Of a stretch of 64,000 nucleotides of DNA, positions 184-60,591 are shown piece by piece. The first letter of the stretch is position 1, and each line of letters opens with the position of its first letter. Source of the stretch: Minisyncoccota bacterium (GTDB lineage Bacteria; Patescibacteriota; Minisyncoccia; Phycocordibacterales; WO2-35-19). Under the pieces are notes generated by a model. That model saw nothing but the letters and a program-made list of their open reading frames with translations, was not told the DNA's origin and ran no database searches. Location: NCBI GenBank assembly GCA_036517255.1, contig DATDXE010000017.1, forward strand, positions 39,599 through 103,598, in the 5' to 3' direction. Both the position numbers and the translations under genes were made by a program.

Positions 184-208
184 CTAACCAAGGGTCACCC
201 TTGGTTAG
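184..208. repeat. Palindromic element copy CTAACCAAGGGT-C-ACCCTTGGTTAG (12-bp perfect stem) between two convergent gene ends; terminator-like hairpin
   Basis: Read directly; reverse complement of left arm equals right arm; member of the CCAAGGGTCACCCTTGG family seen 6 more times. Confidence 0.55.
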
Positions 209-540
209 TCTTTTAACCCATCGATCTTGCTTGCCAAGATGAAGTCATTTTCTGATAGGCCTGATATTGCGTGTGTGGAAAGACGGATGGTTACCTTCTT
301 ATAATCATGCAAATTAATGTCTGGGTGATGGCCTTCGGCTTCAGCAATCTTACCCACTTCATTTACAAAATTTAGAGCATCCTTGAAATCTTTAAAAACA
401 TAATTTTTCTCCAGCTCTTTGTCCTCGATTAGCATCCAATTTTCATCTACTTCCTCCAGCATTTCTTTAACTTCTATTTTATCAAAAGGCTTGATCTTAC
501 CTTCACATGGTACGCAGTGTTTTTTTGACAAGTCATTCAT
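205..540 (-). CDS. Pterin-4a-carbinolamine dehydratase (PCD/DCoH family)
   Basis: 111 aa with the characteristic …EAEGHHPD… motif and PCD-like length. Confidence 0.7.
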   Translation of the reverse strand: MNDLSKKHCVPCEGKIKPFDKIEVKEMLEEVDENWMLIEDKELEKNYVFKDFKDALNFVNEVGKIAEAEGHHPDINLHDYKKVTIRLSTHAISGLSENDFILASKIDGLKD

Positions 541-542
541 GG

Positions 543-1259
543 TTACATTTCTTTGTTTCCAGTATGGCTACGTGGCACTCCGAAAGTTATCGGAGCATTC
601 TTAATAGCCTCCAATATTTCGTCGTCGCTATCTGTAAGAACAAATAATGAGAGATCGCTTTTGTCTATCATATTTTCTTTCGACATTTTTTCTTTAAAGA
701 ACGCGACTAGCGGTTCCCAGTACTCTACCCCCACTAAAATGATGGGTACTTGAGATATTTTGAGAGTTTGAACCAGAGTCAATATTTCTGAAAATTCGTC
801 TAAGGTGCCGAATCCTCCCGGGAAGAAGACGTATGCCTCTGCCGAGAAAGAAAGAGCCACCTTCCTACTGAAGAAATGATGGAACATCATTTTACCAGTC
901 AAATATTTGTTAGTTACCTGGCCTTCTGGCAGTTCAATGAGGAGTCCTATTGAATTACCTCCAGCCTCATATGCTCCACGATTACTTGCTTCCATGATGC
1001 CTGGGCCACCACCAGTGACTATTGAATAATGAAGTTCTTCGACTATTCTTTTACCAAGACCACGAGCTTTTTCGTAGTAAGGGTCGTTTTCAGGTGTTCT
1101 AGTCGAACCAAAAACAGTCACTGATTTCGGATAATTTTTTAGAAATTCGAAACCTTCTGAAAATTCTTTCGATATGAGGGCTACTCGATCGAGTGCTATC
1201 TCCGACATCTGTTCGAAGGTGAGAGAGGTAAGTGGTTTTTGATTGTTCCCAGTATCCAT
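543..1259 (-). CDS. LOG family protein (TIGR00730, cytokinin riboside 5'-monophosphate phosphoribohydrolase-like / Rossmann-fold nucleotide-binding)
   Basis: GGGPGIMEA and PGGFGTLDE motifs typical of the LOG family. Confidence 0.7.
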   Translation of the reverse strand: MDTGNNQKPLTSLTFEQMSEIALDRVALISKEFSEGFEFLKNYPKSVTVFGSTRTPENDPYYEKARGLGKRIVEELHYSIVTGGGPGIMEASNRGAYEAGGNSIGLLIELPEGQVTNKYLTGKMMFHHFFSRKVALSFSAEAYVFFPGGFGTLDEFSEILTLVQTLKISQVPIILVGVEYWEPLVAFFKEKMSKENMIDKSDLSLFVLTDSDDEILEAIKNAPITFGVPRSHTGNKEM

Positions 1260-1332
1260 TGCAGTGTTTCTTATCTTTGTTAATCTTTAATCAATTGTCG
1301 TTTAATCAATTGTGAGTATAATCATAATCTAT

Positions 1333-1842: not shown

Positions 1843-1879
1843 AGTAGAGACCCTTTCCCTAATATGTTATAATGAGCCA

Positions 1880-2128: not shown

Positions 2129-2137
2129 GTATTTAAG

Positions 2138-2356: not shown

Positions 2357-2360
2357 TAGG

Positions 2361-7972: not shown

Positions 7973-10900
7973 ATGCAAAAAACAGCACTACCTAAGAAAT
8001 ATTTCAGTCGCTACAAGAAGCCTCTCGCGCCGATACCTAATCTGGTCAAGGATCAAGTCGATTCTTTCGATTGGTTGGTGAAAGAAGGCCTGAAGGAGGT
8101 TTTCAATGAATTTTCTTCCATCCAAGATTTCTCTGGTAAAAAATTCCAACTCGATTTCACCGATTTTGAGTTGGAGAAGCCTCGCTATGATGAATATTAT
8201 GCTAAGGATAAGAAGCTTTCCTACGAAGCCCCTCTCAAAGTAACCGTCCGCCTCACCAACAAACTGATGAGCACCGTGAAGGACCAGGAAATATTTATGG
8301 CCGATTTTCCTATTATTACCGACCACGGCACTTTTATTATAGGAGGAGTGGAGAGAGTGATTGTGCCTCAACTTACTCGATCTTCCGGAGCGATGTTTAC
8401 CAGTGTAGTCATGAAGGGCCTCAATCTTTTCGGGGCAAAAATTATTCCAGGTAGAGGAGCTTGGATCGAAATCGAAACTGAGGTAGATAAAAGTTTGTTT
8501 GTCCGTATCGATAGAAAAAGGAAGTTCCCAGCCACTGTACTTCTAAGAGCTTTTGGTGCTGAAACTGATACTGATATTTTTGATTTATTTAAAAATAATC
8601 CTGCAGCTAAAGAATATATAGAGAAAACTTTGGCCAAGGATCATGCCAAAACAGTGGATGATTCTTTTATAGAGATACATAGGAGGTTACGTGATGGCGA
8701 TTTGGCGACAGCAGAGAATGCTCGTGAATTTGTCAAAGGCCTATTCGGGGTGGAGCGATATGACCTGTCAAAAGTTGGTCGTTTCCGTTTCAATTCTAGG
8801 TTCGGTAAAACTCTCGGAGGGAAGGAAGCGGATAGGAAAACTCTTTCTCTCGACGATCTCGCTACTATCATAAATCACATCGTCACTCTCAATATTACTC
8901 CAGGTTCTACGCCTGACGATATCGATCACCTTTCTTCTAGGAGAGTGCGTTATGTCGGTGAACTTTTCCAGCAGAAAATCCGTTTTGGTATGGCTCAAAT
9001 CAAGCGTAATATTCAAAATAGGATGTCGACTATCGAAACTGACGTCACTCTTCCAGTACAATTTATTTCGCCTAAGCCGTTGCAGGCTCGTATCAAAGAA
9101 TTTTTTGCTACCAACCAGCTCTCACAATTTATGAGTCAGGAAAATTCCCTGGCTGAAATCGAACATTTACGTACTCTCTCGGCTCTCGGCCCTGGAGGCC
9201 TCAATCGTTCTCGCGCTGGATTCGAAGTGCGCGATGTACATCCTTCGCACTACGGTAGGCTTTGTCCCATCCACACTCCTGAAGGTCCAAACATCGGCCT
9301 AGTACTTCACCTTGCCGCTTATGCTCGTATCAACGAATTTGGCATTATCGAAACTCCTTATGCCAAAGTAAAAAATGGTAAAGTTTCAAGTGATGTGGTT
9401 TACCTCAACGCATTGGAAGATGAAAAATTCAATATCGCTCATGCCGCTACTCCATGTGACGAAGAAGGTAACATTATTCCAGAGACTGTGGAGATACGAC
9501 ATGCAGGTAAGCCGACCCTCTGTCCTAAGAGCAAGGTTGACTATATAGATGTAGCTACTAACCAAGCTTTTTCCGTTGCTACATCCATGATTCCATTCTT
9601 GGAAAATGATGATGCGAACAGGTCACTCATGGGTTCCAACATGCAAAAGCAAGCTGTTACCTGCGTTACTCCTGAAGCACCGCTTGTGGCTACCGGTATG
9701 GAGGCCCCTGCCATGAGGGATACAGGAAGGCTCATTCTTTCCAAAACTGAAGGTACTGTTACCGCTGTCGATGGAAGAAGCATCAAGGTGAAGGATGGCA
9801 AGGGCGAAACTCATGAATACAAACTGATAAACTTTTCCAAAACGAATTCCGCTACCTGTTTCCACCAGAGACCTTCGGTTGATTTGGGTGACAAAGTAAA
9901 AAAGGGCGATGTCCTAGCGGATACTTTGACTAGTCAGAATGGGGAAATGGCTATCGGTCAAAACGTGCTGGTAGCTTTCCTTTCTTGGAGTGGCGCCAAC
10001 TATGAGGATGCAATCATTCTTTCCGAGCGTCTGATCAAAGAAAATAAATTTACTTCGATGCACATCGACGAATTTGTAGTCAGTGTGCGTGATACTAAGC
10101 TTGGTCCTGAAGTTACCACTTGTGATATTCCAAATGTGGGCGAAACCAAACTTCGTAACTTGGCGGAGGACGGTATTATCCGTGTCGGCGCTGAGGTCAG
10201 GCCAGGTGATATTCTTGTCGGTAAGATTACTCCAAAAGGTGAAACTCAACTTACTCCGGAAGAACGCTTGCTCCGATCGCTCTTCGGAGAAAAAGCTCGT
10301 GATGTGAAGGATACTTCCAAGAGGATGGAAGGAGGTAAAAAGGGTAGGGTAATCAGGGTGCAGGTATTTTCTCGAGAACAGGGTGATAAGCTAGACTCTG
10401 GTATTTTGAAAAGAATACATATTGAAATTGCTCAAATAAGAAATGTTTCAGTCGGCGATAAACTTGCAGGTCGACATGGTAACAAGGGAGTCATTTCCAA
10501 AATATTACCAGTCGAGGATATGCCATACATGGCTGATGGTACTCCGATGGATGTCATCCTTACTCCTCTCGGTGTGCCTAGCCGTATGAACTTGGGTCAA
10601 ATTTTAGAACTTCATCTCGGGTTAGCCGCGAACACTTTGAAATATCAAGCTGTCGTACCTCCTTTTTCTGGAGCTACTCATGCTGAAGTAAAGGAAGAAT
10701 TACAGAAGGCGGGATTCAGCGAAACAGGAAAAATCCAACTCTATGATGGTAGGACGGGCATGGCTTTTGAGAAGGAAACAGCTGTCGGTTATATGTATGT
10801 CTTGAAGCTTGACCACATGGTGGAGGACAAAATTCACATGCGTTCCATCGGGCCTTACTCTCTTATTACCCAACAGCCTCTTGGTGGTAAGGCTCAGGGC

Positions 10901-11152: not shown

Positions 11153-14100
11153 ATGAGACCAAATCAATCACAAGAGGCAAATAATTTCGAAGCTATGAAA
11201 ATAGCTCTCGCTTCGCCGGAGCGTATCAAGGAGTGGTCGTTCGGTGAGGTCACCAAGCCTGAAACCATCAACTATCGCACCCAAAGGAGCGAGCGCAGTG
11301 GTCTTTTCGACGAGAAAATATTCGGTCCGGACAAGGATTTTGAATGTTACTGTGGAAAATATCGCGGCATCCGCTACAAAGGCATTGTCTGTGAAAAATG
11401 TGGTGTTGAAATCACTCGCTCGATTGTGCGCCGTGAAAGGATGGGCCACATCGAGCTTGCTGCTCCCGTCTCTCATGTTTGGTTTCTCAAATCGATGCCA
11501 TCGAGGATTTCTCTTATTCTCGGCATTCCTGCACAAGACATAGAGAAGGTGGTTTATTTTGCTGGTTATATCATCACTCGTGTTTCTGCTGAAGAAAAAG
11601 CTGGTATCTTGCGCGATCTCGATTCAGAATACAAATCCAAATCAAAACAACTAAATGAGGAAAAAGCTAAGGAATCTTTGAAAGAAAGGCTTCTCGCTAC
11701 CAAGAAGGAAATCGAAAGCTTGGTTGAAGGTAAAGTCTTGGACGAAGTCGAATATCACAAATATTCAGTGAAGTACGGTACTCTTTTCGAAGCTCAAATA
11801 GGTGCTGAAGCCATTTTCGATATTTTCAAGAAAATAGATATGGTTAAATTGGAGAAGAAGTTACTCGAAGAATACGAAAAAGCTGGAGCTATGGAATCAG
11901 CCAAAATTGCCAAGCGGCTTTCCACTATTCAGGCCATGATCAAATCAGGAGTGCGTCCAGAATGGATGTTCCTTACCCGTATTCCAGTTATTCCTCCGGC
12001 TCTTCGCCCGATGGTGCCTCTTGATGGTGGCAGGTATGCTACAAGCGATGTTAATGACTTATATAGGAGAGTAATCAATCGCAACAACCGATTGAAAAAA
12101 TTGAAGGAGATCCATGCTCCAGATGTTATTTTGCGTAATGAAAAAAGAATTTTGCAAGAAGCTGTGGACGCTCTGCTCGACAACTCCATCCGTCATGGTT
12201 CTCAAAGTGGAGCTACTGCAGGTATCCAGACAAAAGCTAGAGCTTTGAAATCGCTCTCTGATAACCTCAAAGGTAAAAAAGGCCTTTTCCGTCTGAACCT
12301 TTTGGGTAAACGCGTCGATTATTCTGGTCGTTCGGTTATCGTCGTTGGTCCCGACCTCAAATTACATCAGTGTGGTTTGCCGAAGTATATGGCTCTCGAA
12401 CTCTTCAGACCTTTTATTATTTCCGAACTTATCAAGAAGGAGCTGGCTTACAACGTACGTGGAGCCGGGCGACTTATCGATGAAGCTCTGCCTGAGGTTT
12501 GGGCTATTCTTGAAGAGGTAATCAAGGGTAAATATGTACTCTTGAACCGAGCTCCTACTCTTCACCGATTGGGCATCCAAGCTTTCCAGCCGATTCTGGT
12601 TGAGGGAAGTGCTATTCAGGTGCACCCTCTTACTTGTAATGCTTTTAATGCCGATTTCGATGGCGACACTATGTCAGTCCATGTTCCTCTTTCTGAAGAG
12701 GCACAGATGGAAGCCAAGGAAATCATGGCCGCCAATAAAAACATCTTGAAGCCGGGAAGCGGCGATCCTACTATTTCGAACAAACCCCTCGATATTATTC
12801 TGGGTTGTTATTGGATGACAAAAGACGTATCGGGAGAAAAAGGGGAGAACATGATTTTTGAGGATCCAAACAGTGCCATCATTGCTTACAACTTCAGTGC
12901 TGTTAGTTTACGCGCTAAGATTAAAGTTCTAGGCAACGATTCTCTGAAGTACGCACAATTCGGAGGTAAGATTTTCGAAACTACCATTGGTAAAATCCTC
13001 TTCAACTTCGTATTGCCTCCAGATTATCCTTTTGTCAACTATGAAGTAACTAAGAAGAAATTAGTTCAGCTTGTCGACGATCTTACTAAAATTTATGGCA
13101 TAGGATCTGTACCGGCCATCATGGATAAAATAAAAGAATTTGGTTTTCGTTACGCTACTGTTTCTGGTACTACTTGGGCCATGTACGACATCAATGTGCC
13201 GGAGGAAAAGCACGCTGTTATTGAAGGGGCTTTGAAGAAAGTGGAGGAAGTTTCTAATCAGTACGATCAAGGTTTGGTTTCGGAAGAAGAGAAGAAAATA
13301 AAAAATATTGAAATTTGGACAGCCGCTAAAGACGATATTGAGAAGAAAGTGCAGGATTCGCTTGATAAAACAGGCTCTGTTTACGATCTAGTCAATTCTG
13401 GAGCCAGAGGTTCCTTCGGACAGCTTACTCAGATGATTGGTATGAAAGGACTTATCGTGAACACTGCTGGAGAAACTATCGATTTTCCTATCACTTCTTC
13501 TTACAAAGAAGGCCTGACTCCGCTTGAATACTTCATCACTACTCACGGTGCTCGTAAGGGTATGACGGACACGGCTCTCAATACCGCTAAAGCCGGTTAT
13601 CTCACGAGGAGACTTTTCGATGTAGCCCAGGATGCTATTGTTTTGGAAGAGGACTGTAAAACCAAAGAGGGTATTATAATTAGTCGAGAAACCTCTGCAG
13701 GTATGGAAGTATCTCTCTCTAAACTGGTCAAGGGCCGCTACCTTTCACATGATGTTCTCGATAAAGAGGGTAAAACTCTGTTTGAAAGGAATCATTATTT
13801 AACTAAGGAAGATGCGAAGGCGATAGAAGACGCGGGAGTAGAGAGTGTTACCGTCCGTTCTCCTCTTACTTGCAAAACTTTAAGTGGCGTTTGTATCTAT
13901 TGCTACGGCTCTGATCTCGGTCGCGATGAGGTTATAGATATTGGTGAAGCTATCGGTACTGTGGCTGCTCAGGCGATCGGCGAGCCTGGTACTCAGCTGA
14001 CGATGAGGACCTTCCATGCTGGAGGTACCGCATCTGTCGGAGGCGACATTACTCAAGGTTTGCCTCGTGTTGAGGAAATTTTCGAAAATCGTACTCCTAA

Positions 14101-29258: not shown

Positions 29259-31340
29259 ATGCACGGTAAATTCAAAATAAAAAGTACCCATAAACCTGCT
29301 GGGGATCAACCGAAGGCTATAGAGAGTTTAGTGAAAGGATTGAAGAAAGGTTTGAGCAGTCAGACCCTTTTAGGTGTAACGGGAAGCGGTAAGACATTTA
29401 CGATGGCTAATGTCATAGAAGCCGTGCAAAAACCGACTCTTGTCATTGCTCATAATAAGACATTAGCTGCTCAATTAGCTCAAGAGTATCGAGAATTTTT
29501 TCCCGATAACGCTGTGCATTATTTTGTCTCTTATTACGATTTCTACCAGCCAGAAGCCTATATGCCAGTCACCGACACTTATATAGAGAAAGAGGCCATG
29601 ATCAATGAGGAAATAGAAAGATTGCGTCATGCTTCGACTCAGGCACTCTTGACCAGGAAAGACGTGATAATAGTCGCTTCAGTATCGTGCATTTATGGTT
29701 TAGGCAGTCCTGAAGAATACGAAAAAGTAAACCTTAAAATAATAAAAGACCAAAAAATTGCTCGGGGAGATTTTATGCGCAATCTGATAGCTATACATTA
29801 TGAAAGGACTACCCTCGATCTGAAATCTGGCTTTTTTCGGGCTCTTGGGAATACAATCGAGGTCATTCCAGTCTCAGAGAATAATATTTACAGAATAGAA
29901 ATTGCAGAAGACAGGATCCAAAAAATCCAGAAGATAGATGCTATCACTAGACAAGTAATAGAAGAGCCAGAAACATTTTATTTGTTTCCTGCAAAACACT
30001 TTATTACGAGTGACGAGAAGCTCAAGGTTGCATTCAAAACTATAAAATCCGAACTAAGCGATCAACTAAAGAAGTTTGAAAAAGAAGGCAAAATTCTAGA
30101 AGCCGATAGGCTGAAAAGAAGAACAAGTTATGATCTCGCTATGATAAAAGAGATAGGCTATTGTAATGGTATTGAAAATTATTCTCGTCATTTTGATGGG
30201 AGATCAGTCGGTGAACCAGCTCACACTCTTCTATCGTATTTTCCACGCACTTCCGATGGAAAGTCCGATTTTCTCACTATAATAGATGAGTCGCATGTTA
30301 CTGTTCCTCAAATCGGAGCGATGTACGCTGGGGATCAAGCGAGGAAAGCAACATTGGTGGAACATGGTTTTAGATTGCCATCAGCGAAAGATAATCGTCC
30401 TCTCAGGTTTGAAGAGTTTGAACAGAGAGTGGGACAAGTAATTTATACTTCAGCTACTCCTGCCAAATATGAAATCGAACATAGTCAAAACGTCGCCGAG
30501 CAGGTTATTCGACCAACTGGTCTTATTGATCCAGAGGTAAGCATCCGGCCGATCACGGGAAGTTACCAAGGGTCACCCTTGGCCGGAGCCCTTGGGCCAA
30601 AGGTGACCCTTGGTAACCAAGCAAGATATCAGGGCCAAATCCAAGATTTCATTAAGGAAGCTGAAAAGGATGTAAAAAAGGGGGGTAGAGCTATTGCCAC
30701 TACTCTTACTAAGAAGATGGCTGAAGACCTTTCAGAATACTTGAAGGATAAAAAAATAAAAGCAGAGTACTTACATAGCGATATTAAAACAATAGAGAGA
30801 ATAGAGATACTAACAAAATTTAGGAGGGGTTCAAAGAATGGAGGGTTTGATGTGCTTGTGGGTGTAAATCTTTTGCGGGAAGGACTCGACCTGCCAGAAG
30901 TTTCCTTCATCGGAATTTTGGATGCCGATAAAGAAGGTTTCCTGCGAAGCGAAACTTCACTTATTCAAATCATCGGTCGTGCCGCCAGGAATGTGGACGG
31001 TAGAGTCGTCCTTTATGCTGATCGTGTCACTGGTTCTATGGAAAGAGCAATAGGGGAAACCAATCGTCGTCGAGCTATTCAGCTTGAATACAATGAAAAG
31101 CATGGTATTACTCCGCAAACTATCATAAAAGAAATCAAAGATATTACTGATCAACTTCAAAAAGGGCACAGAGAGGTGGTGGGGGCGCTCCTCAAAATTG
31201 ATTCTAAAAATAAAAATATTCCAAAACTTATCCGCACCAAAGAAAAACAAATGAATGCCTCGGTCAAAATCCTTGACTTCGAAACTGCCGCTATCCTCAG
31301 GGATGAAATAAAAGAGCTAGAGAAAATAGCCTCTAAGTAG
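29259..31340 (+). CDS. uvrB: Excinuclease ABC subunit B
   Basis: …LLGVTGSGKTFTMANVI…, helicase motifs, C-terminal UVR motif; in-frame palindromic insertion at 30561-30618. Confidence 0.9.
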   Translation: MHGKFKIKSTHKPAGDQPKAIESLVKGLKKGLSSQTLLGVTGSGKTFTMANVIEAVQKPTLVIAHNKTLAAQLAQEYREFFPDNAVHYFVSYYDFYQPEAYMPVTDTYIEKEAMINEEIERLRHASTQALLTRKDVIIVASVSCIYGLGSPEEYEKVNLKIIKDQKIARGDFMRNLIAIHYERTTLDLKSGFFRALGNTIEVIPVSENNIYRIEIAEDRIQKIQKIDAITRQVIEEPETFYLFPAKHFITSDEKLKVAFKTIKSELSDQLKKFEKEGKILEADRLKRRTSYDLAMIKEIGYCNGIENYSRHFDGRSVGEPAHTLLSYFPRTSDGKSDFLTIIDESHVTVPQIGAMYAGDQARKATLVEHGFRLPSAKDNRPLRFEEFEQRVGQVIYTSATPAKYEIEHSQNVAEQVIRPTGLIDPEVSIRPITGSYQGSPLAGALGPKVTLGNQARYQGQIQDFIKEAEKDVKKGGRAIATTLTKKMAEDLSEYLKDKKIKAEYLHSDIKTIERIEILTKFRRGSKNGGFDVLVGVNLLREGLDLPEVSFIGILDADKEGFLRSETSLIQIIGRAARNVDGRVVLYADRVTGSMERAIGETNRRRAIQLEYNEKHGITPQTIIKEIKDITDQLQKGHREVVGALLKIDSKNKNIPKLIRTKEKQMNASVKILDFETAAILRDEIKELEKIASK
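30561..30618. repeat. Two tandem copies of the palindromic element (CCAAGGGTCACCCTTGG at 30565-30581; CCAAAGGTGACCCTTGG at 30596-30612) in-frame inside uvrB
   Basis: Read directly; encodes …GSYQGSPLAGALGPKVTLGNQ…. Confidence 0.6.
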
Positions 31341-40764: not shown

Positions 40765-40929
40765 TAATTCTGCTCTCGCTTTGACCAGTTAGGCTCTGAC
40801 TTCCCTTATAAAGGAAAGGTCCGGTAAGAAACCAGACTTGTATACATTATACACCTATTCAACCTTGCTGTCAATAGTAATCTGTGGTCAAATAATTTGA
40901 CCCGAAAAAGACTCAAGAATAAGCCTAAA

Positions 40930-40978
40930 ATACCAAGGATGACCTTCAGGCTGCTGTACTGAGGGTCATCCTTGGTAT
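40930..40978. repeat. Palindromic element copy ATACCAAGGATGACC-N19-GGTCATCCTTGGTAT immediately 3' of the surface-protein gene
   Basis: 15-bp inverted arms read directly. Confidence 0.55.
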
Positions 40979-40983
40979 TTTTT

Positions 40984-43677
40984 CTAGAATTCTTGATATG
41001 TCGGATCTATAGCAAAATTGGCTGTACAGCTGACGGAGGAACTCACTGTAAAGCTATATGAAGGATTGGTGCCACTGCAATTCCCTGTCCATCGAACGAA
41101 TATCCTGCCTGTAGCTGGGGTGGCAATGAGAGTAACATTAGAATCTTGGGCGTATGTTTCTGAACAGTCAGCTCCACAGTTGATTCCTCCTGGATTACTT
41201 ACTACTGTTCCCTGCCCTGTTTTGTTGACACTTACATTTACCGTAGGGTTCTGTACTGTTATGGTTATATTATCAGTACCGTTTCCTGGTTGACAGGTAG
41301 CGGTGTAGGTTCTTGATGAAGTGAGGTTACCGGTAGCTTGGTTGCCAGAAGTGCCTGTCCAGCCGGTTGGTGATACTGTACATCCTCCACTAGCCCCATT
41401 TGAACTCCAGATTATATTTGTGCCTGTGTTGTAGGGTATGGTAGTTTGCCCGGCATTTATATCTACTGTAGCAGCTGAAGCCTGTTTGGCCCAAGAGAAA
41501 CTGTATGAAGCCCCTCCTCCATTTTCGTAATATTCCATGACTAAAGTTTTATTTCCTGCTGTAACTGCAACTGGTGTAGATGCTACCGTTCTATAACCAT
41601 GGTCGCTCCAATCATTTACTAAGTAACCAGAATCGGGGCTGCCGTCAAGATTATTGTCGAAATAAAGCCTTACCCCATCGTCCCCTCCTATAGTAAATAT
41701 ATAATTGCCGGCAGTGAAATTGAACGTGCCTTTTGATCTTATGGAATAGGTATTAGTATTTGAAGAATCAGGGCCGCTATTCCCCCAATCTCTATATGGA
41801 ATAGGGCTTGCAGTATCAGGGGCTGGACTTGATAAAGCGGATTGATTTACTGCTGTGGTCGTAATCGTGTTGAAAGCCATTCCATCATAGAGACAGCCTT
41901 TCATAAAGTTTGATCCTGCTCCCGTATCGCAGGAAGCGAGTGGAGCTACAGTCACCGTTACCGATCCGTTTCCTGTTCCTCCCGGGCCAGTACAACTGAG
42001 GGAGTAGGTCGTAGAAGTAGTTATATTTCCAGTCGAGACGCCTGTACTATTAGTAGTTCCGGTAGACCAATTTCCTGCTGGCATATTAGTTCCTGTGCAA
42101 CTTGTAGCATTAGTTATGGTCCAAGAAATATTAGAGGAAGTATTGTAGGCAATGGAAGTAGGGTTTGCGGTAAGAGTTATCGTCGGTAGTCCTGGCACTG
42201 CCGCCCGGCTGGCGGTACATGAAGCAGAGGTACTGCCGCCGTTTTGCCCACTACAAGTCCAATTTACTGAAGTGCCTGCAGCTGGGAACGAAGTGTTCGA
42301 AGAGGATCCATTGCCACACTGGGTATCTGGACTGTATTGGGTTATGCTAGAAGCATAGGTTTTTCCATTCGCTGTGCCGCAAGTGCCATTTATTGGAGCA
42401 ACTGTTGCAGTAAATGTCTGAACAACACAATTATTGGATTCGTTAGATTCAGAAACTGAATTATTTATATCAGCGCAAAATTCAAAACGATGAGTGCCCG
42501 CATTAATAGAAGCATTCCAGTTTTCACTTTCTGAGGCTCCGGAAGACAGTGCCCCTGTCGTTGCGTTTCCTGGAGTTAGATCCCACGAGCCATTATTCCC
42601 AATATCTATTCTTAATCGAGCCTGACTAGAACCAGCAGAACCTGCTCCGGAATTCCTAATATTTACTCTGAAGTCCATATTACCAGCAGAGACTGAGCCT
42701 CCTGGGAGTACGACTTCTGCAATCAAATCAGGCCGAGTAACATTTATTGTAAGAAGCCCGCCCAAATCATATCTATCGTCACTATTCCAGCGTCCTCTTA
42801 TTCCAATAGAATAAGTTGATAAGGGAGTGTTGGCGGCCGTTACGACTCTGAAGGTAGTACTTGCCATGCCATTATTGGGCACACTTACATTTGTAACCGT
42901 AAAATTGCAAGTAGCGTTGTTGGGACAAGCGTAGTATCGACTCATATTGACCGTACCCGACATACCGTCAATTGCTTGTATAGTTATCGGGTAGTATGCA
43001 GTCTGTCCCGCGTTTATAGTTTTACTTTTAGGTGAATTCAAAGTGACGGTGAAATCGGGTGGGGGCGCGCTACAATCTCCCCCACTACTTATATTGCAAT
43101 TACTATAGTTTTCTCCAGCATACTCTTGGCATACTCCGTCTCCGCAAGTAGGTCCGGAAGGTTCATCAGAGGCTGGCACCACTATTTGGTACCCATCGTG
43201 ATCCGCAGTACCGGCACAAAAAGAATTAGAGATTGAAGGTGGAACTTGTGTACCTCCAGGCTGAAGTCGCCTACCCTGGTATTGCAAACCATTATTACAA
43301 TCAAAAATTTGAGTCCCAGAAGGATAATCTCCATTCATAAATCCCTGCAGAATTGGAGGAGTAATCCAGACCCAAGGGTCTGACACCAGAGAACCAGGAT
43401 CACAAGCCAGAACCGTCGGATAACATATGCCAGGACTATAAACATTCATACTAAAAAACCCCAGGTCATTTATACTTTCAATGAAATCATAACTCTCAAG
43501 CACAACCTCACGCCAAGAAGAGGTATTCATAAAAGAAATATCCATCCTGTCTGACCAACCAAAATTTTGTTCTTGAAAGAAATAGGTTTTAGCTGGCTCA
43601 GCATCTACTATCGTCGGAATACAGAAGAGAAAAAGAGTGTAGACAATTAATAATAACTTTCTGGAAATAGATTTCAT
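40984..43677 (-). CDS. Large secreted Thr/Ser/Gly/Asn-rich surface protein with PA14 domain and C-terminal InlB-B-repeat-like domain
   Basis: N-terminal signal peptide; …GNYIFTIGGDDGVRLYFDNN…DHGYRTVASTPVAVTAGNKTLVMEYYENGGGASYSFSWA… PA14-like; …GQGTVVSNPGGINCGADCSETYAQDSNVTLIATPATGRIFVRWTGNCSG… bacterial-repeat domain. Confidence 0.7.
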   Translation of the reverse strand: MKSISRKLLLIVYTLFLFCIPTIVDAEPAKTYFFQEQNFGWSDRMDISFMNTSSWREVVLESYDFIESINDLGFFSMNVYSPGICYPTVLACDPGSLVSDPWVWITPPILQGFMNGDYPSGTQIFDCNNGLQYQGRRLQPGGTQVPPSISNSFCAGTADHDGYQIVVPASDEPSGPTCGDGVCQEYAGENYSNCNISSGGDCSAPPPDFTVTLNSPKSKTINAGQTAYYPITIQAIDGMSGTVNMSRYYACPNNATCNFTVTNVSVPNNGMASTTFRVVTAANTPLSTYSIGIRGRWNSDDRYDLGGLLTINVTRPDLIAEVVLPGGSVSAGNMDFRVNIRNSGAGSAGSSQARLRIDIGNNGSWDLTPGNATTGALSSGASESENWNASINAGTHRFEFCADINNSVSESNESNNCVVQTFTATVAPINGTCGTANGKTYASSITQYSPDTQCGNGSSSNTSFPAAGTSVNWTCSGQNGGSTSASCTASRAAVPGLPTITLTANPTSIAYNTSSNISWTITNATSCTGTNMPAGNWSTGTTNSTGVSTGNITTSTTYSLSCTGPGGTGNGSVTVTVAPLASCDTGAGSNFMKGCLYDGMAFNTITTTAVNQSALSSPAPDTASPIPYRDWGNSGPDSSNTNTYSIRSKGTFNFTAGNYIFTIGGDDGVRLYFDNNLDGSPDSGYLVNDWSDHGYRTVASTPVAVTAGNKTLVMEYYENGGGASYSFSWAKQASAATVDINAGQTTIPYNTGTNIIWSSNGASGGCTVSPTGWTGTSGNQATGNLTSSRTYTATCQPGNGTDNITITVQNPTVNVSVNKTGQGTVVSNPGGINCGADCSETYAQDSNVTLIATPATGRIFVRWTGNCSGTNPSYSFTVSSSVSCTANFAIDPTYQEF

Positions 43678-47001: not shown

Positions 47002-47463
47002 ATGCCTCCATTTAAATTATTTAAAAAAGTAAACCAAGAGATAAAATATAAGACTGAGAATAATGAGGACGGTCTTTATATTTATATACTCTTTCCTATT
47101 GCCTTCATCTTCCTGCTTACCTTCATGGGAGCCAGGATAATTAGTCATATAAACCCGGACTTACACATCCCATGGTGGGGGGTGCACGTGCACCATTATG
47201 CTTATGGTTTTTTCATTCTTGCGGCAGCTGGATATCTTTCCCTAGTTTTTTCTGGACCTAGGGCAAAATATTGGATAGCCATGCTGCACGGTTTTGGCCT
47301 TGGTCTTTCTTTCGATGAGTTTGGTATCTGGCTCCATCTCTCCGATGATGATTTGGCCAGATGGAGTTATGATGGTTTTCTCATCATCATTGGCCTTATC
47401 GTACTTATCCTCTCTGCCAAAAGAGGCATCAGATTCATTAAAAATTTTATCCCTTTCACCTAA
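47002..47463 (+). CDS. Hypothetical membrane protein (153 aa, about 4 TM; HVHHYAYGFF motif)
   Basis: ATG with AGGAA RBS; opposite strand to the flanking ABC genes. Confidence 0.45.
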   Translation: MPPFKLFKKVNQEIKYKTENNEDGLYIYILFPIAFIFLLTFMGARIISHINPDLHIPWWGVHVHHYAYGFFILAAAGYLSLVFSGPRAKYWIAMLHGFGLGLSFDEFGIWLHLSDDDLARWSYDGFLIIIGLIVLILSAKRGIRFIKNFIPFT

Positions 47464-47473
47464 ATTAACCAAT

Positions 47474-47515
47474 AACCAAGGATGACCCTTGGTATACCAA
47501 GGGTCATCCTTGGTT
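47474..47515. repeat. Perfect 42-nt palindrome made of two opposed element copies (AACCAAGGATGACCCTTGGTA | TACCAAGGGTCATCCTTGGTT) between convergent genes
   Basis: Reverse complement of the 21-nt left arm equals the right arm exactly. Confidence 0.65.
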
Positions 47516-47519
47516 AAGC

Positions 47520-48797
47520 CTATCGGCCTAGGATAGAATCTAAAGTGTTTTTCTTTACTACTAACCTTGCAGGAACAAAGCCGGCGATGATAGTGGCGAG
47601 TATGATGAGGAAGGCGCGTAAGAAAGTGCCTGGGACTTCAGCTACTAATATGCCGTCGGAGAATGGGAAGTTGATCGGATGAGCAGCGAAGAATGGCACC
47701 ATAAATCCGTAAAGGAGGGTCATGCCTATAAAGATGCCTAGAGTGGCATAGAAGACTGATTGCAAAACGTATGATATCTCGATCGCTCCTGGAGCAATAC
47801 CGATACCTTTCATAATACCGATAAATTTTCTTCTTGTAATCGCGTTAATAAATACTACGATGAAGATGGTAATAGAGGCGACGACCAGGCTGATCGAGCC
47901 CATGACGTTTCCGAGCATGCCAAAAGTATTTTGAATATCGAGTAGGAACTTCGGCAGTGATTCCTGCCAGGTTTGTACTCGCGATGTTTCCCCTACCCCG
48001 GCTTTAAGCAGAGCTTCTTTTACTAAATAAGGGTCACTTCCTGGTTTTAATTTGATCGCAATTTCGTCCACATTAAAATCGCCTCTTCCGATAAGTGGTC
48101 GTAAACTTCTATCAAGCATAAATATTCGCATGTCGATAGAATCTGTTTTAGATTGCACGATGCCTTTTATCATTACTTCTTTGGTATTACCGCCTACAGT
48201 AAGTCGTACTCTGTCGCCCACAGCTACGTTTTCTAGGAGGGGAAATCCCGGAATGTCGACCGGTAAATATTTTTTAGTTAGGTTGGCGCCGATTAAGATA
48301 GCGTCGGCATCGCCGGAATTAAGGTAGGAACCCTCGATGATTTTGGAAGCCAGATGAGTTGTCGCATCTTCTGTATCAGGATCAATACCAGCGACTACTC
48401 CCCCAGCACTATTTGGATCATCGGCAAGGCGCACTCTTGCTTTGTAATTGGCCTCGATACTTCCTGATTCCATATATCGAGCCGCCACATTTTCCACCCA
48501 AGGCATATTTTTGATCGTGCTCAGTATCGCTGGGCTGTTTTCAATATAATTTTTCTTAGTCAGGTTTGTGATCAAAATATCACCCGAATAATTTTCTACA
48601 TACACGTCAGTCGAACCTTGAAGTAATCCGACTAATATTCCACGCACCACTACTAAATTTAAGAACGTGAGCGTCATCACAAATATAATCAAAAAAGTCG
48701 TCGATTTCCCCGACCTCTTCAGTTGCCGCAGGGCCAAAAAGAACCCAACTTCCATATTGGTTCCCCACCTATTTATTTTTTTAGTTATTCTTTCCAT
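47520..48797 (-). CDS. ABC transporter permease, FtsX/MacB family (large extracytoplasmic domain between TM1 and TM2)
   Basis: 425 aa, 4 TM with C-terminal FtsX-like helices. Confidence 0.8.
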   Translation of the reverse strand: MERITKKINRWGTNMEVGFFLALRQLKRSGKSTTFLIIFVMTLTFLNLVVVRGILVGLLQGSTDVYVENYSGDILITNLTKKNYIENSPAILSTIKNMPWVENVAARYMESGSIEANYKARVRLADDPNSAGGVVAGIDPDTEDATTHLASKIIEGSYLNSGDADAILIGANLTKKYLPVDIPGFPLLENVAVGDRVRLTVGGNTKEVMIKGIVQSKTDSIDMRIFMLDRSLRPLIGRGDFNVDEIAIKLKPGSDPYLVKEALLKAGVGETSRVQTWQESLPKFLLDIQNTFGMLGNVMGSISLVVASITIFIVVFINAITRRKFIGIMKGIGIAPGAIEISYVLQSVFYATLGIFIGMTLLYGFMVPFFAAHPINFPFSDGILVAEVPGTFLRAFLIILATIIAGFVPARLVVKKNTLDSILGR

Positions 48798-49271
48798 TTA
48801 CTTCAACCCTTTGCAGTTTGCCGCTGGAGTATAGCCTGCAGCTCGGGCTTCGTCGATAGAGGTAAAGGTAATTTTATTTTTATCTGATATTTGTTTGGCT
48901 CCAGCACATGTCGGCAGGTGGTACTTGGTGCCGTTTTTTGACGCCACTACCTCAATTTTCCCCAAAGCCTCTTCTTGAGGAATTGTGGCCGCCGCAGGTT
49001 GAGTATTTTTTATAACAGAGGTCTTATTTTTTTCTATATCTTGTTCTTGGTTCTTGATACTTGATACTAAATTTTCTTTTTCTTGCACTACTCTCACTGG
49101 TTCCTTCTCGCTCCTTATTGCAGTAAATCGACCCACACAAAAAGCACTTATTGCTACCAACACTACTACTGCGACCCACCACCAAGTACTTCCCAGAAAC
49201 TTTTCAAACTTGGATTTTAGGCTGTTTTCCTCTTTTTTTTCTAGATCATCTATATTTGCATATTCTTCCAT
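48798..49271 (-). CDS. Membrane-anchored protein with C-terminal Ada-like metal-binding domain
   Basis: …KYHLPTCAGAKQISDKNKITFTSIDEARAAGYTPAANCKGL… matches the Ada N-terminal zinc-binding pattern (YHxPxC…I…N…F…EA…AGYxPC). Confidence 0.45.
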   Translation of the reverse strand: MEEYANIDDLEKKEENSLKSKFEKFLGSTWWWVAVVVLVAISAFCVGRFTAIRSEKEPVRVVQEKENLVSSIKNQEQDIEKNKTSVIKNTQPAAATIPQEEALGKIEVVASKNGTKYHLPTCAGAKQISDKNKITFTSIDEARAAGYTPAANCKGLK

Positions 49272-51427: not shown

Positions 51428-51575
51428 ACAGGAGGTAAATCCATTGCCAAAACCTTGGCTATCGGTAGAGGTGAAGTGCTTTTCCAGAGGAACGCAAACC
51501 CACTGGATCGAGACACATAGTCTCCACCTCGTAGTAACTTGTCAAAGGCAAAATCTCTCGAAAGGAGATAGTAGT

Positions 51576-54454: not shown

Positions 54455-54570
54455 GATTAATTTCTAATTTTTAGTTCCTAATTTTTATTTAATTATTAAT
54501 GTGTTAATGTTTGGAAATTCCTAAATTTAGTCATTGATTAAAAATTTTAAATTAAAAATTGAAAATTAAG

Positions 54571-56004
54571 ATGGATATCAAACTTCAGAACACACTTACG
54601 GGAGAGAAGGAAAGATTCTCGTCAATATCTGATGGCACAGTCAGTATGTATCACTGCGGACCGACAGTTTACGGTAGGCAGCATATTGGCAACCTCTCCA
54701 TGTTTGTTTTCACCGATGTTTTGCGAAGAACTTTTGAGTATTTTGATTATAAAGTAAATCAAGTGATAAATATTACTGACTTCGGACACCTTTCTGGTGA
54801 CAACGAAGGTAATGCCGATATAGGGGAAGATAAAATGACTAAAGGTTTGAAAGCTGAAGGTCTAGAAATAAATATGGAGAATATGAAAGTGCTGGCCAAA
54901 AAGTATGCGGACATTTTCAAAGCCGATCTGGAACAACTTAATATCAAGAAACCTTCCCACTTTCCTTTTGCATCTGACTATATAGAAGAGCAAAAAAAAC
55001 TAATAGAAAAATTAGAAGAAAAAGGTCTCGCTTATATTATTAGTGATGGAGTTTATTTTGATACGGAAAAGTTCCCAAATTATGGCAAGCTCGGCCCCCA
55101 CTCCGTCAAAGACTTCGCGGGGCAAGCAAGGATTAGTGAAAATCTGGAAAAGAAAAACCCTAAAGATTTTGTTTTATGGAAAATTTCAGAGGTTCCCCCG
55201 ATGTCTGACATAGGGAAACAGGAATTAGGTTGGGAGAGCAAATGGGGCCGAGGCTTCCCGGGTTGGCATATCGAATGTACCGCTATGATTTTTGCTTTGC
55301 TCGGTGAGCAGATTGATATCCATACCGGAGGGATCGAACACATAGGTGTACATCACAATAATGAAATCGCTCAGGCCGAAGCGGCGTCGGGCAAATCCCC
55401 TTTCTCCCGCTTCTGGCTGCACCGCGAACATATTCGCATTGACGACACGAAACTCTCAAAATCGACTGGCAACGTGCTCTACCTTTCTGACCTCAAAGAA
55501 CGCGGCATCCACCCGCTCTCTTACCGCTACTGGCTTTTGACTAGCCGCTACAACACCCCAAGCAATTTTACCTGGGAAGCTGTGGAGGGAGCGCAGGTGG
55601 CGCTTGAAAAAATCGTCGCGGAATATGCCGAAAAACCAAGGATGACCCTTGGTTCCGGAATTGCCGAAGGCGAACCAAAGGTCATCTTTAGTTTTTCTGA
55701 AGCTATTGCAGATGATCTCAATACTCCCGTTGCTATTGCTTTGCTTCAAGAAATAAATGACAAAGAAACTATAAATAAAATGGATCAGGTTTTGGGTTTA
55801 AACATAAAAAAATTAGCAGAACAGATTCGGGAAATCCCTGATGAAATAAAAGATTTACAAAAACAACGTGATGAGGCTCGCAAAAACAATGATTATAAAC
55901 TCTCCGATGAATTGCGCGACAAAATTGAGCATGCCGGTTTTATGGTAAAAGACACGGGCAATTCTAGTCTTATTTTAAGATCTCTCTCTACTATTGCCCA
56001 ATAA
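54571..56004 (+). CDS. cysS: Cysteine--tRNA ligase
   Basis: …MYHCGPTVYGRQHIGN… (HIGH-type) and …KLSKSTGN… (KMSKS); ATG 54571 (ORF track begins at TTG 54559). Confidence 0.9.
   Translation: MDIKLQNTLTGEKERFSSISDGTVSMYHCGPTVYGRQHIGNLSMFVFTDVLRRTFEYFDYKVNQVINITDFGHLSGDNEGNADIGEDKMTKGLKAEGLEINMENMKVLAKKYADIFKADLEQLNIKKPSHFPFASDYIEEQKKLIEKLEEKGLAYIISDGVYFDTEKFPNYGKLGPHSVKDFAGQARISENLEKKNPKDFVLWKISEVPPMSDIGKQELGWESKWGRGFPGWHIECTAMIFALLGEQIDIHTGGIEHIGVHHNNEIAQAEAASGKSPFSRFWLHREHIRIDDTKLSKSTGNVLYLSDLKERGIHPLSYRYWLLTSRYNTPSNFTWEAVEGAQVALEKIVAEYAEKPRMTLGSGIAEGEPKVIFSFSEAIADDLNTPVAIALLQEINDKETINKMDQVLGLNIKKLAEQIREIPDEIKDLQKQRDEARKNNDYKLSDELRDKIEHAGFMVKDTGNSSLILRSLSTIAQ
55634..55654. repeat. Palindromic element copy AACCAAGGATGACCCTTGGTT in-frame inside cysS
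   Basis: Read directly; encodes …KPRMTLGS…. Confidence 0.55.
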
Positions 56005-57194: not shown

Positions 57195-57218
57195 CGGAGA
57201 CCACGCACCACAATCCCG

Positions 57219-57608: not shown

Positions 57609-57617
57609 AGCTTTTAC

Positions 57618-57648
57618 CAGCGGTCGGAGTGTGATGCTCCGACCGCTG
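57618..57648 (+). terminator. Perfect hairpin CAGCGGTCGGAG-tgtgatg-CTCCGACCGCTG
   Basis: 12-bp inverted repeat read directly. Confidence 0.55.
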
Positions 57649-57711
57649 AATGTTTATTTATATTGAGAGTATCACTAGAAAGTGTTAAATTGAACCTGGA
57701 GAGAAGATCCT

Positions 57712-58263
57712 ATGATAGTGAGATTAGTAGCACTCGCAGTTCTTTCTAGTCTTTGTTTGGTGCCCGTCGTGGCTCAAGCAAGGATAGATGTCGTCGCTTT
57801 AGATCGAGCGAATGACAAAATCGCGAAAAAGGAGTTTGACAGCGCGGTCGGCCTTTTCGTATTGATTTTCACGGATTTTAATCCGAGAGATCTTGAGACC
57901 TGTAACTTGGTCTCTGCTCACGCGGCTATAAGGTGGGTTGAAAATCATGCAATGAGGCGACCAGGGGAAATGGCCGCGCTCGGAGTGACGGCCCAAGCCG
58001 CCGCAAGGGTACGCAGAGTATTTGCGGGGATCCTTGCGAGAAACATTTTCGAGAAGCTTGAGAACGGTGAGTCCGTAGAAGGAGGCAGGTGTAGTTTACC
58101 GACCTTCGTTACAGGATCGCCGACCGGTTCGGGTTTTACCGACCTGACGAGTTTTTCCAAAATGATCTCGTTTCTCGAGTCTCTCATCACGAGGGACAAA
58201 GAGGTGCGAGATGAGATTCCCGAGAAAGGAATCCGCAAACTTCGAGAGAAGTACCTAAAGTGA
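57712..58263 (+). CDS. Hypothetical secreted protein (183 aa, signal peptide), GC-rich
   Basis: Signal peptide MIVRLVALAVLSSLCLVPVVAQA; followed by a strong terminator. Confidence 0.5.
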   Translation: MIVRLVALAVLSSLCLVPVVAQARIDVVALDRANDKIAKKEFDSAVGLFVLIFTDFNPRDLETCNLVSAHAAIRWVENHAMRRPGEMAALGVTAQAAARVRRVFAGILARNIFEKLENGESVEGGRCSLPTFVTGSPTGSGFTDLTSFSKMISFLESLITRDKEVRDEIPEKGIRKLREKYLK

Positions 58264-58278
58264 ACGCGAGCGGATGGA

Positions 58279-58320
58279 AAGCTTCGGCGTCCTCCAAGAT
58301 GCCGAAGCTTTTGCTTTTTT
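58279..58320 (+). terminator. Rho-independent terminator AAGCTTCGGC-loop-GCCGAAGCTT + TTTGCTTTTTT
   Basis: 10-bp stem plus T-run read directly. Confidence 0.65.
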
Positions 58321-58374
58321 AATATTTTTACATTACTCTTAGTTTTGTAATAAAATTTTTGTATTTAAATTAAA

Positions 58375-60591
58375 ATGAAACTTGTTATCGTAGAATCACC
58401 AGCGAAATCGAAAACAATTTCCAAGTATTTGGGAAGCGAGTATAAAGTGCTCGCGAGTATTGGGCATGTGCGGGATTTACCAAAGAGTAACAAAAAAGCT
58501 ATCGATATCCCTGGTGGCTTCATCCCCCATTACGAAATAAGTAAAGGCAAAGAAAAAGTGGTAGCTGAAATAAAAGCGGCTGCAAAAAAGGCAGATGAAA
58601 TATTGCTCGCGACAGACCCCGATCGTGAGGGAGAAGCTATTGCTTGGCACCTCTCAGAGATTATTACTGAAGGAAAGAAGGAAAAAAGGAAAGATATTAA
58701 AAGAGTTACTTATCATGAAATTACGAAGGAAGCTGTGGAAGAAGCCTTCAAACACCCACGAGATATAGATGAAAATTTAAAGGAAGCTCAAGAAGCCAGG
58801 CGAGTTCTGGACAGGCTCGTCGGTTATGATTTATCTGGTTTAATTTGGAAAAAGGTGCGATATGGCTTATCCGCTGGGCGCGTCCAATCCCCCGCTTTGC
58901 GCATTATAATGGAACGTGAGCGCGAAATCCGCGCTTTCAAACCGGAAGGATATTGGGTGGTAACGGCAAAACTTTCTACAGAAAAAAAAGAAGAAATTTT
59001 ATTTACTTGCACTGAAGAGCCGAAAACAGAAAAAGAAGCAGCCAGTATCGTAGAGACAGGAAAGAACAATGGATGGAGAGTGGTGAGCGTGGAAGAAAGT
59101 CAGGTGAAAAGAAGTCCACGGCCACCATTTATTACTTCTACATTACAACAAGCTGCTTCAAGTAGGCTCGGTTTCGCTCCTTCGAGAACTATGGGTATTG
59201 CCCAGAAACTTTATGAATCAGGCCTCATAACTTACATGAGAACTGACTCTATCACTTTGTCGGGCAATGCTATTTCCCAGATAAATAACATCGTGGAGAA
59301 AAAATTTGGCAAAGGATTATTTTTAGCCAGGAAATTCACAAGCAAATCCAAAAACGCACAAGAAGCCCATGAGGCAATAAGACCGACAGATTTCAGCAAG
59401 GATTCTGCGGGTATAAACGATGAACAGAAAAAGTTATACAACCTCATTTGGTCCCGAACCGTCGCCAGCCAAATGCAAGACGCAGAGATGATGAGGACGA
59501 GGGTGCTTGCGAATGTCGGGGAACCAAGGGTCACCCTTGGTATTCCTGATTTTGCAGCCAATGGCCAAAGAGTCGTCTCCCCTGGTTGGCTCTTAGCAGA
59601 TATAAAAGCTCGCGGAGAAGATGTGGAATTGCCAAAAATGAAAGCTGGGGATTCTCTCAATCTTTTAAATATAGGAAGTGAAGGTAAGCAGACAGAGCCA
59701 CCAGGTCGTTACAGTGAAGCAGGTTTAATTAAAGAATTAGAGAAAAGAGGTATCGGCCGCCCTTCTACTTACGCTTCTACTATTAAAACTATTGTGGATA
59801 GAGGTTATGTGGAGAAAGATGGTAAGGCTTTGAAGCCGACGGACACTGGCGACGTCGTCTCTACTTTCTTGGAAAATAATTTCGAAAAATACATTGGTGA
59901 CACTTTCACCGCCGATATGGAAGATGAGCTGGATGATATAGCCCTAGGTAAAAGGAAATATGAGCCGACCCTGCGCGAATTCTATGGGCCATTTCTGAAG
60001 GATGTGAAGAGTAAAGATAAAATAGATAAACTGACTACTCTGGGCGACGTAGATCCCCAAATTAAATGCCCTATTTGTGGCAAAGGCATGGTAATTAAGC
60101 TCGGTCGCGGAGGCAAATTCATGTCTTGCGAGACTTTCCCAGATTGTAAAGGTATGCGGACGATACTCGGAGAAATCATAGAGGAAGCCAAACCTATTGG
60201 GGTGGACCCAACAACAGATTTGCCTATATATGTCATGGACGGCAGGTTTGGGCCATATGTACAGTTGGGTGAGAAAGGAAAAAAGGAAAAAGGAAAGAAG
60301 GAAAAATTAAGAATGGCCAGTATTCCGAAAGAGAAGAATCCTCATGAGGTAACAGTGGAAGAAGCTTTACATTACCTCTCTCTCCCCCGCTTACTCGGTA
60401 ATCACCCCGAAACTGGCAAACCAATCTCAGCCAATATTGGGCGCTTCGGCCCATATGTCGTACATGAGAAAGATTTTAGATCTCTAAAAGAAGACGACGT
60501 TTATAAAGTCACATTTGAACGAGCTCTAGAAATATTCTCTGAACCCAAAAAATTCCGCCGTGGTAGATTTGCAAAGAAGGAAGAAAGTTAG
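58375..60591 (+). CDS. topA: DNA topoisomerase I with C-terminal zinc ribbon
   Basis: TOPRIM N-terminus MKLVIVESPAKSKTISKYLG…, …TDPDREGEAIAWH…, Zn ribbon CPICGKGMV…CETFPDC; in-frame palindromic element at 59523-59541. Confidence 0.9.
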   Translation: MKLVIVESPAKSKTISKYLGSEYKVLASIGHVRDLPKSNKKAIDIPGGFIPHYEISKGKEKVVAEIKAAAKKADEILLATDPDREGEAIAWHLSEIITEGKKEKRKDIKRVTYHEITKEAVEEAFKHPRDIDENLKEAQEARRVLDRLVGYDLSGLIWKKVRYGLSAGRVQSPALRIIMEREREIRAFKPEGYWVVTAKLSTEKKEEILFTCTEEPKTEKEAASIVETGKNNGWRVVSVEESQVKRSPRPPFITSTLQQAASSRLGFAPSRTMGIAQKLYESGLITYMRTDSITLSGNAISQINNIVEKKFGKGLFLARKFTSKSKNAQEAHEAIRPTDFSKDSAGINDEQKKLYNLIWSRTVASQMQDAEMMRTRVLANVGEPRVTLGIPDFAANGQRVVSPGWLLADIKARGEDVELPKMKAGDSLNLLNIGSEGKQTEPPGRYSEAGLIKELEKRGIGRPSTYASTIKTIVDRGYVEKDGKALKPTDTGDVVSTFLENNFEKYIGDTFTADMEDELDDIALGKRKYEPTLREFYGPFLKDVKSKDKIDKLTTLGDVDPQIKCPICGKGMVIKLGRGGKFMSCETFPDCKGMRTILGEIIEEAKPIGVDPTTDLPIYVMDGRFGPYVQLGEKGKKEKGKKEKLRMASIPKEKNPHEVTVEEALHYLSLPRLLGNHPETGKPISANIGRFGPYVVHEKDFRSLKEDDVYKVTFERALEIFSEPKKFRRGRFAKKEES
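59523..59541. repeat. Palindromic element copy ACCAAGGGT-C-ACCCTTGGT in-frame inside topA
   Basis: Read directly; encodes …EPRVTLGIP…. Confidence 0.55.

Follow-up and report, generated by a model that had tools for sequence, protein, structure and literature searches.

The 64-kb stretch of DNA analysed here (hereafter the window; G+C ~41%), from a Minisyncoccota bacterium, encodes UvrB (29259..31340), CysS (54559..56004) and TopA (58375..60591) among other proteins, and carries a family of short palindromes, similar to repetitive extragenic palindromic (REP) elements, that are found both close to stop codons and in frame within these three genes. The closest UvrB and TopA proteins have source names that include Candidatus Paceibacterota, Parcubacteria and Patescibacteria group. 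The window belongs to an 83-kb metagenomic contig (ENA ERZ28563625 scaffold_588), and contigs near-identical to it were present in several other samples. When the window was searched for the 17-mer CCAAGGRTSACCCTTGG with ≤2 mismatches, we detected eight matches, at positions 188, 30566, 30597, 40959, 47476, 47497, 55636 and 59524, compared to none in 100 dinucleotide-preserving shuffles. A looser pattern scan of the window added a degenerate unit at 55674, for a total of six loci and 8-10 units in 64 kb with none expected; three of the loci are intergenic and three are coding. Repeats were counted in the window, in flanking contig sequence and in a contig encoding a putative REP-associated tyrosine transposase (RAYT) described below, which together have 11 loci in ~97 kb. 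These numbers bear out the dispersed palindromic family proposed in a first-pass annotation of the window. The coordinates given there were correct to within 1-4 nt, except that the palindrome at 47473-47516 is 44 nt rather than 42 nt and the second arm of the cysS copy had been overlooked. The same annotation listed a diverged copy, CCAAAACCTTGG, at 51457-51468; this sequence is actually at 51449-51460, is non-palindromic and is no member of the family.

With its flanks, the consensus of the hairpin-forming unit (19-27 nt) is (T)W-ACCAAGG-RTSAY-CCTTGGT-W(A). The unit occurs either as a perfect dyad (GGGTSACCC) or in an oriented form, GGATGACCC, or GGGTCATCC read on the opposite strand. Single units were found at two of the six window loci (183-209 and 59523-59541). 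The other four are inverted doublets (30562-30617, 40927-40981, 47473-47516 and ~55630-55697), and the order is uniform in all inverted doublets, with the ATGAC unit first and the GTCAT unit second. When folded as single-stranded DNA, the doublets form one long hairpin of 20-23 bp (-19 to -25 kcal/mol, z -5 to -9), and the single units reach -9 to -12 kcal/mol. Each unit consists of a single dyad; at the loci examined, we detected neither direct target duplications nor terminal inverted repeats around an internal sequence, and the flanks were inverted or unrelated. In this genome the flanks read TA/AT/AA-ACC...GGT-TA/AT/AA, such that GGTWA takes the place of the short tag seen in described REP superfamilies, and GGTAG was observed only in related copies of other organisms (L156, L157 and L168). 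The half-site CCAAGGG alone was not enriched in the window (six occurrences outside the elements vs 6.9 expected), and an Rfam scan of the window detected only a tRNA. None of the frames of the palindrome has a stop codon, except for one frame of the ATGAC form, and the sequence is thus readable as a short loop peptide.

In uvrB, the doublet (30562..30617, plus strand) consists of inverted units at 30565-30583 and 30596-30614, with 23-nt arms 10 nt apart, and encodes ~19-23 added residues (SYQGSPLAGALGPKVTLGNQAR). The linker between the RPI and Y.GQI.DFI motifs has 25 residues in the window protein, compared to six residues in 56 of 120 orthologs and 10-56 residues in the other 64. UvrB residues 435-457 have no counterpart in solved structures (9GY7, 2FDC and others), the alignment splitting at this point. 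In an AlphaFold2 model, residues 435-456 have a predicted local distance difference test (pLDDT) score <50 and no secondary structure, with a strand (426-430) before them and a helix (460-473) after. With the model taken into account, the assignment of the uvrB doublet as a lineage-specific insertion in an inter-domain linker predicted to be disordered holds.

The topA copy is a single unit (59523..59541, plus strand) encoding (E)PRVTLG. The loop between N and IPDF in which it lies has ≤5 residues in 61 of 119 orthologs, nine in the window protein and up to 31 elsewhere, and its counterpart in mycobacterial TopA structures is a loop of about the same length. The cysS doublet (55630..55697, plus strand), for which the pattern scan detected the first arm and the looser scan the second, has an intact unit at 55635-55653 (KPRMTLG) and a degenerate inverted unit at 55674-55692 (EPKVIFS). 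This copy lies before the DDLNTP helix, in a linker of variable length in CysS proteins generally. It adds a net ~10 residues, and its degenerate second arm runs into the first part of the conserved helix. Comparison with orthologs, as proposed in the first-pass annotation, showed a lineage-specific insertion in uvrB, but the cysS copy is not a clean insertion. An additional copy ~4.5 kb upstream of the window is located in rnhB, as a seven-residue insertion relative to Thermotoga RNase HII (3O3G). L137, a candidate rnhB ortholog with an extended palindrome, was ruled out by tblastn.

The uvrB, cysS and topA open reading frames (ORFs) are intact and full length and have the expected Pfam architectures, in line with the earlier proposal that the palindrome colonises coding sequence without disrupting it. 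All coding copies had also been thought to encode P-(R/K)-(V/M)-T-L-G. This peptide is encoded by four units, but the first uvrB unit encodes Q-G-S-P-L and the rnhB copy T-K-G-D-P-L; since the peptides differ between coding units, all three frames are used. One example of a predicted insert-spanning peptide is GALGPKVTLGNQAR. Overall, coding copies account for three of the six window loci and four of all 11, each within an intact gene. A coding fraction of 4/11 is far below that for random insertion into a gene-dense genome and so fits with purifying selection.

All three intergenic loci are within 0-10 nt of stop codons. The single unit at 183..209, a 27-nt perfect palindrome (ACTAACCAAGGGTCACCCTTGGTTAGT; DNA hairpin of -12 kcal/mol, z -7.0), lies between a plus-strand DoxX-like gene (TAA stop at 181-183) and a minus-strand Pterin_4a gene (205..540), and the Pterin_4a gene takes its TAA stop from the outer arm of the palindrome. 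Pattern scanning and folding also identified two intergenic doublets. At 47473..47516, two abutting units form a perfect 44-nt palindrome flanked by the convergent genes 47002..47463 (plus strand) and 47520..48797 (minus strand, FtsX). At 40927..40981, the doublet forms a 23-bp hairpin with a 9-nt loop, in which the inner half-stems have diverged yet still pair with each other. Intergenic copies had been described as sitting exactly at convergent gene ends, as is true for 183-209 and 47473-47516; the doublet at 40927-40981, however, is between two minus-strand genes, 2 nt downstream of the stop codon of an 897-aa gene (40984..43677). A simple terminator scan flagged two of the three copies, one of them on the non-coding strand, and left 183-209 unflagged. 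The T-tracts at the intergenic copies are weak or on the wrong strand, and a secondary role of these copies as terminators is possible. We also noted a sigma-70 promoter matching the consensus at 12 of 12 positions (TTGACA-17-TATAAT) at 40846-40874 on the minus strand, between the doublet at 40927-40981 and the minus-strand gene that follows.

Scans with the DNA pattern alone led to three loci (L145/L171, L168 and L016) at which units adjoin genes for RAYT-like proteins. Public genome contigs (596 Gb) scanned with the 17-mer gave mostly single chance matches, the useful match being L016, and public metagenome contigs scanned with a 19-mer gave 35 stretches, mostly unrelated single matches in high-GC contigs, together with two multi-copy contigs; a scan of viral contigs for the repeat gave no match. 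In L145 (the same locus as L171), a single unit precedes a 190-225 aa ORF with the Pfam domain Y1_Tnp by ~100 nt, and a doublet overlaps the stop codon of this ORF. A second Y1_Tnp ORF, in L168, is bracketed by units on both sides. In L016, a contig of a Paceibacterota metagenome-assembled genome, a unit is found 15 nt past the stop codon of a RAYT homolog and another after the gyrA stop codon.

The sole NCBIfam match of the RAYT-like protein was NF047646, REP-associated tyrosine transposase. Both the HUH motif (NH[FY]H) and the SAYIHxNP tyrosine are invariant in two alignments of homologs from the candidate phyla radiation (CPR), with 20 and 46 sequences. The CPR-homolog profile had its best Protein Data Bank (PDB) match in 4ER8, in which the E. 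coli RAYT is complexed with a REP hairpin; the alignment brings both the HUH and the YIxxNP motifs into register. A single-sequence phmmer search of the PDB with the RAYT-like protein gave no match. For the AlphaFold2 model of the protein (pLDDT 87), the top fold match was 4er8_A (E 1.2e-6, target TM score 0.71), ranked ahead of the IS200/IS605 transposases ISDra2 and IS608. The protein has numerous homologs in CPR metagenomes (2829 proteins at E ≤1e-5). Several of them carry the JGI name RayT or a Patescibacteria assignment, and contigs of 1-2 kb are the source of many.

The doublet at the stop codon of the L145/L171 RAYT gene is identical over 45 nt to window positions 47473-47517, with nothing else aligning. 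The contig was found in SRR2090153, alongside the uvrB and pterin contigs of the window, and in sibling samples of the same studies. Its tetranucleotide correlation with the window is 0.955, compared to 0.975 between the window halves and 0.83-0.87 for related Paceibacterota loci. On the basis of the shared doublet, sample co-occurrence and composition, we infer that the L171 RAYT gene is in the same genome as the window, to which L171 adds five repeat loci in 16 kb. Two further contigs, L173 and L174, end exactly at the REP doublet beside the RAYT gene (L171 6337-6376), and the repeats probably fragment CPR assemblies.

Collectively, these data make it probable that the repeats are a family of the REP/REPIN type (REPIN, REP doublet forming a hairpin), most likely spread by a cognate RAYT-like HUH/Y1 tyrosine transposase with its gene at another place in that genome. 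The enzyme that mobilises them would be the L171 RAYT. By analogy with the E. coli RAYT and IS200/IS605, the transposase would act on single-stranded DNA, recognising the folded hairpin, cutting beside it and re-ligating it at a new site. Copies would survive only at places of low harm, either right after stop codons or in frame in flexible linkers. Those after stop codons may double as RNA 3´-end hairpins or terminators, and those in coding sequence are presumably translated, in which case the palindrome would appear in the protein as a short loop peptide.

Relatives of the organism carry other palindromes at the same sites. In the syntenic L169, whose TopA is 81% identical, a different palindrome, ACCCCTCCCCAAGGGAGGGGT (11178-11198), is found at the equivalent topA position. 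In L170 (UvrB 79% identical), the equivalent uvrB position has a different inverted doublet, CTTTCCTAAGG-TCTCG-CCTTAGGAAAG followed by its partner (11295-11350), and in L176 the uvrB site has GGGTATTTTTCTGCTGAAAAATCCCC, with a second copy of that palindrome in the gene for queuine tRNA-ribosyltransferase (TGT) (11336-11361 and 9346-9365). Another Paceibacterota RAYT gene, in L175, is flanked by its own palindrome, GTCCTTGAAGGGCGCCTTCAAGGAC, a third copy of which is 8.5 kb away. Unrelated inserts, as long as 50 residues and placed at one site, are present in approximately half of the UvrB and TopA orthologs, and the inserts whose DNA was read are lineage-specific palindromes. Judged from these alignments, both the uvrB linker and the topA loop are hot spots for insertion throughout Paceibacterota. 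The clade in general appears to have lineage-specific palindrome families, each beside a RAYT-like gene where one was recovered, along with in-frame copies in housekeeping genes. We also observed the peptide motifs SPLLGKERG, FSAEKSP and VIFEKNTAKPSKE recurring across proteins and lineages. The uvrB linker has only six residues, and the same position is therefore expected under independent insertion and in-situ replacement alike.

Recurrent use of the same sites raises the question of whether the palindromes moved at all. They could have been perfected locally by template switching (quasi-palindrome correction) at hairpin-prone linkers, converging without transposition, and the fact that the palindrome at the shared uvrB and topA positions differs from lineage to lineage would be compatible with such an origin. 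A further case is the perfect palindrome with a 12-bp stem in L169 (4394-4420, GTTCCCCAAGGACTCTCCTTGGGGAAC), inside the ortholog of the 157-aa protein of the window (48798..49271, minus strand), which aligns without length change to an imperfect quasi-palindrome at window ~48951-48986. This pair reflects either decay of an old repeat or local perfecting in L169. Identity of 19-45 nt between unrelated loci, however, is beyond local processes, and we regard an in-situ origin of the family as the least probable of the explanations considered, although template switching could be behind the outer-arm extension and the maintained complementarity of the doublet arms. [quoted passage not shown] The repeats would then be non-autonomous remnants moved by another transposase (e.g. 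DDE) or by recombination, and the RAYT adjacency would reflect an insertion preference. This is very unlikely given that the palindrome abuts a RAYT-like gene at three independently found loci, that the RAYT gene of a different lineage (L175) is flanked by the palindrome of that lineage, that terminal inverted repeats and direct target duplications are missing and that the units are far below RPE or MITE size. A MITE was rejected since the whole unit is one dyad and the flanks are never direct repeats, such that for the selfish REP/MITE-like palindrome of the first-pass annotation the REP part is retained, on account of the doublets and the RAYT-flanking units, and the MITE part is not. Membership in the RPEs was rejected on size (doublets here are 44-68 nt) and on the Paceibacterota host, with in-frame insertion itself being shared.

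The palindromes might also be hairpins under selection for a host function, as bidirectional terminators, mRNA-stabilising stem-loops, sites for dimeric proteins (operator- or parS-like) or a DNA-uptake signal. The perfect dyad, the proximity of the intergenic copies to stop codons, the two copies flagged by the terminator scan and the presence of a parB gene in the window (60601..61692) are all compatible with a function of this kind, and a dependence on DNA uptake has been proposed for CPR bacteria. Nevertheless, half of the window loci are coding, as residues that orthologs lack, the T-tracts do not fit with terminators, and the palindrome is unrelated to the consensus of the conserved parS. 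The half-site is not enriched, unlike uptake sequences, and a DNA uptake sequence or uptake signal sequence (DUS/USS) was rejected on this count. In close relatives these sites hold another palindrome, and the palindrome of the window adjoins RAYT-like genes. We thus consider a host function to be an unlikely origin of the family.

Several observations weigh against a REP/REPIN family mobilised by a RAYT. The GTAG/CGTC tag of described REP superfamilies is missing from the units, the coding fraction of 4/11 is unusually high for REPs, and the cysS copy, as aligned, is not a clean insertion. No copy was polymorphic for presence or absence among the strain variants recovered. The NF047646 score of the RAYT-like protein (51.6 bits) is under the curated cut-off of 80, and the sequence match to 4ER8 is marginal (E 0.017). 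Finally, no RAYT gene is present in the window (64 kb) or in the flanking contig sequence that was read (~17 kb), and the link between L171 and the window is one of co-occurrence, composition and one shared 45-nt repeat rather than of physical linkage.

REPs, REPINs and RAYTs are well described. To our knowledge, these systems have been studied almost only in Proteobacteria. The repeats described here resemble the E. coli (TnpA-REP, 4ER8) and Pseudomonas systems in being short, dispersed palindromes with many copies, in often being paired as inverted doublets that form one long hairpin, in their sites just past ORFs, where they at times supply the stop codon, and in the HUH/Y1 gene bracketed by the same repeats, the protein motifs (HUH and YIxxNP) and predicted fold of which best match 4ER8. 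They differ in that the units are shorter (19-27 nt), are nearly perfect dyads and have GGTWA rather than GTAG/CGTC, in that the WQ motif conserved in class-2 RAYTs reads FQ, and in that the host belongs to the CPR/Patescibacteria and about a third of the loci are intragenic, compared to the extragenic expectation. Intragenic REPs have been reported, many in genes for replication and repair (uvrA, uvrB and recB among them), with REP dimers encoding 20-30 residues, REP ends supplying stop codons and in-frame insertions argued to occupy flexible linkers (Di Nocera et al., 2013; PMC3733652). The units and dimers described here are likewise in frame in genes for known proteins, including repair proteins, but are from another phylum and have an untagged palindrome, and the same linkers hold different lineage-specific palindromes across many relatives.

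Among in-frame palindromes, RPEs, reportedly described in 2000, are the classic case; RPE-1 is ~100-150 bp and is not known to have a transposase. Like the repeats described here, RPEs are in frame in housekeeping genes, where they are translated as surface peptides. The elements in the window differ in size (19-68 nt) and in having a candidate RAYT, and no similarity in sequence to RPEs would be expected. The Y1 HUH transposase gene flanked by hairpins is also reminiscent of IS200/IS605, in which the hairpins are subterminal. Here, however, hairpins are dispersed alone, without the gene, at at least 10 loci, and the protein is closer to RAYT than to TnpA-IS200. A literature search of incomplete coverage found no papers tying RAYTs or REPINs to Patescibacteria, and this type of element, known from other bacteria, is apparently undescribed so far in the phylum.

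Three other features of the window were noted. In the TGT gene (27556-29229), the TGT domain is interrupted by a DUF559 (Vsr-like endonuclease) domain, which is in frame and spans aa 254-357. This insert is bracketed by G+C-rich palindromes of another family, CCCCTCTCCCAAGGAGAGGGG (SPKERG; 28248-28268) and AAGCCCTCCCCTTGGGGGAGGGTTT (LPLGEG; 28631-28655), the domain is absent from the TGT proteins of the relatives L170 (399 aa) and L176 (444 aa), and the insert looks like a nuclease cassette placed in frame between hairpins. Beside a HicB-like antitoxin gene (hicB, ~1880-2128), the hicA toxin gene is a 39-aa remnant at window ~2237-2356 (L125 4265-4384), while the strain variant L132 has an intact 72-aa HicA_toxin. 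A gene of the 23S_rRNA_IVP family (PF05635; 14905-15249) is located directly downstream of rpoC.

The occupation of the same linkers by different palindromes allows a broader, more speculative proposal. REPIN-RAYT systems might be pervasive in Patescibacteria/CPR and repeatedly remodel the same UvrB, TopA and RNase HII linkers, with occupancy of the site inherited and the palindrome overwritten in step with the RAYT specificity of each lineage; we consider this possible, though rather doubtful. If correct, inherited occupancy with an overwritten palindrome would imply homing or replacement of REPs into hairpins, or a selected role for the hairpin or the peptide, beyond tolerated random insertion. 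For the organisms themselves, the repeats may be a major source of variable insertions in CPR housekeeping proteins and, with two contigs ending exactly at a repeat, may break CPR assemblies. They also provide a compact natural test of insertion-tolerant protein loops, and, should the repeated occupation of sites reflect targeting rather than tolerance, would be informative on target choice by HUH transposases.

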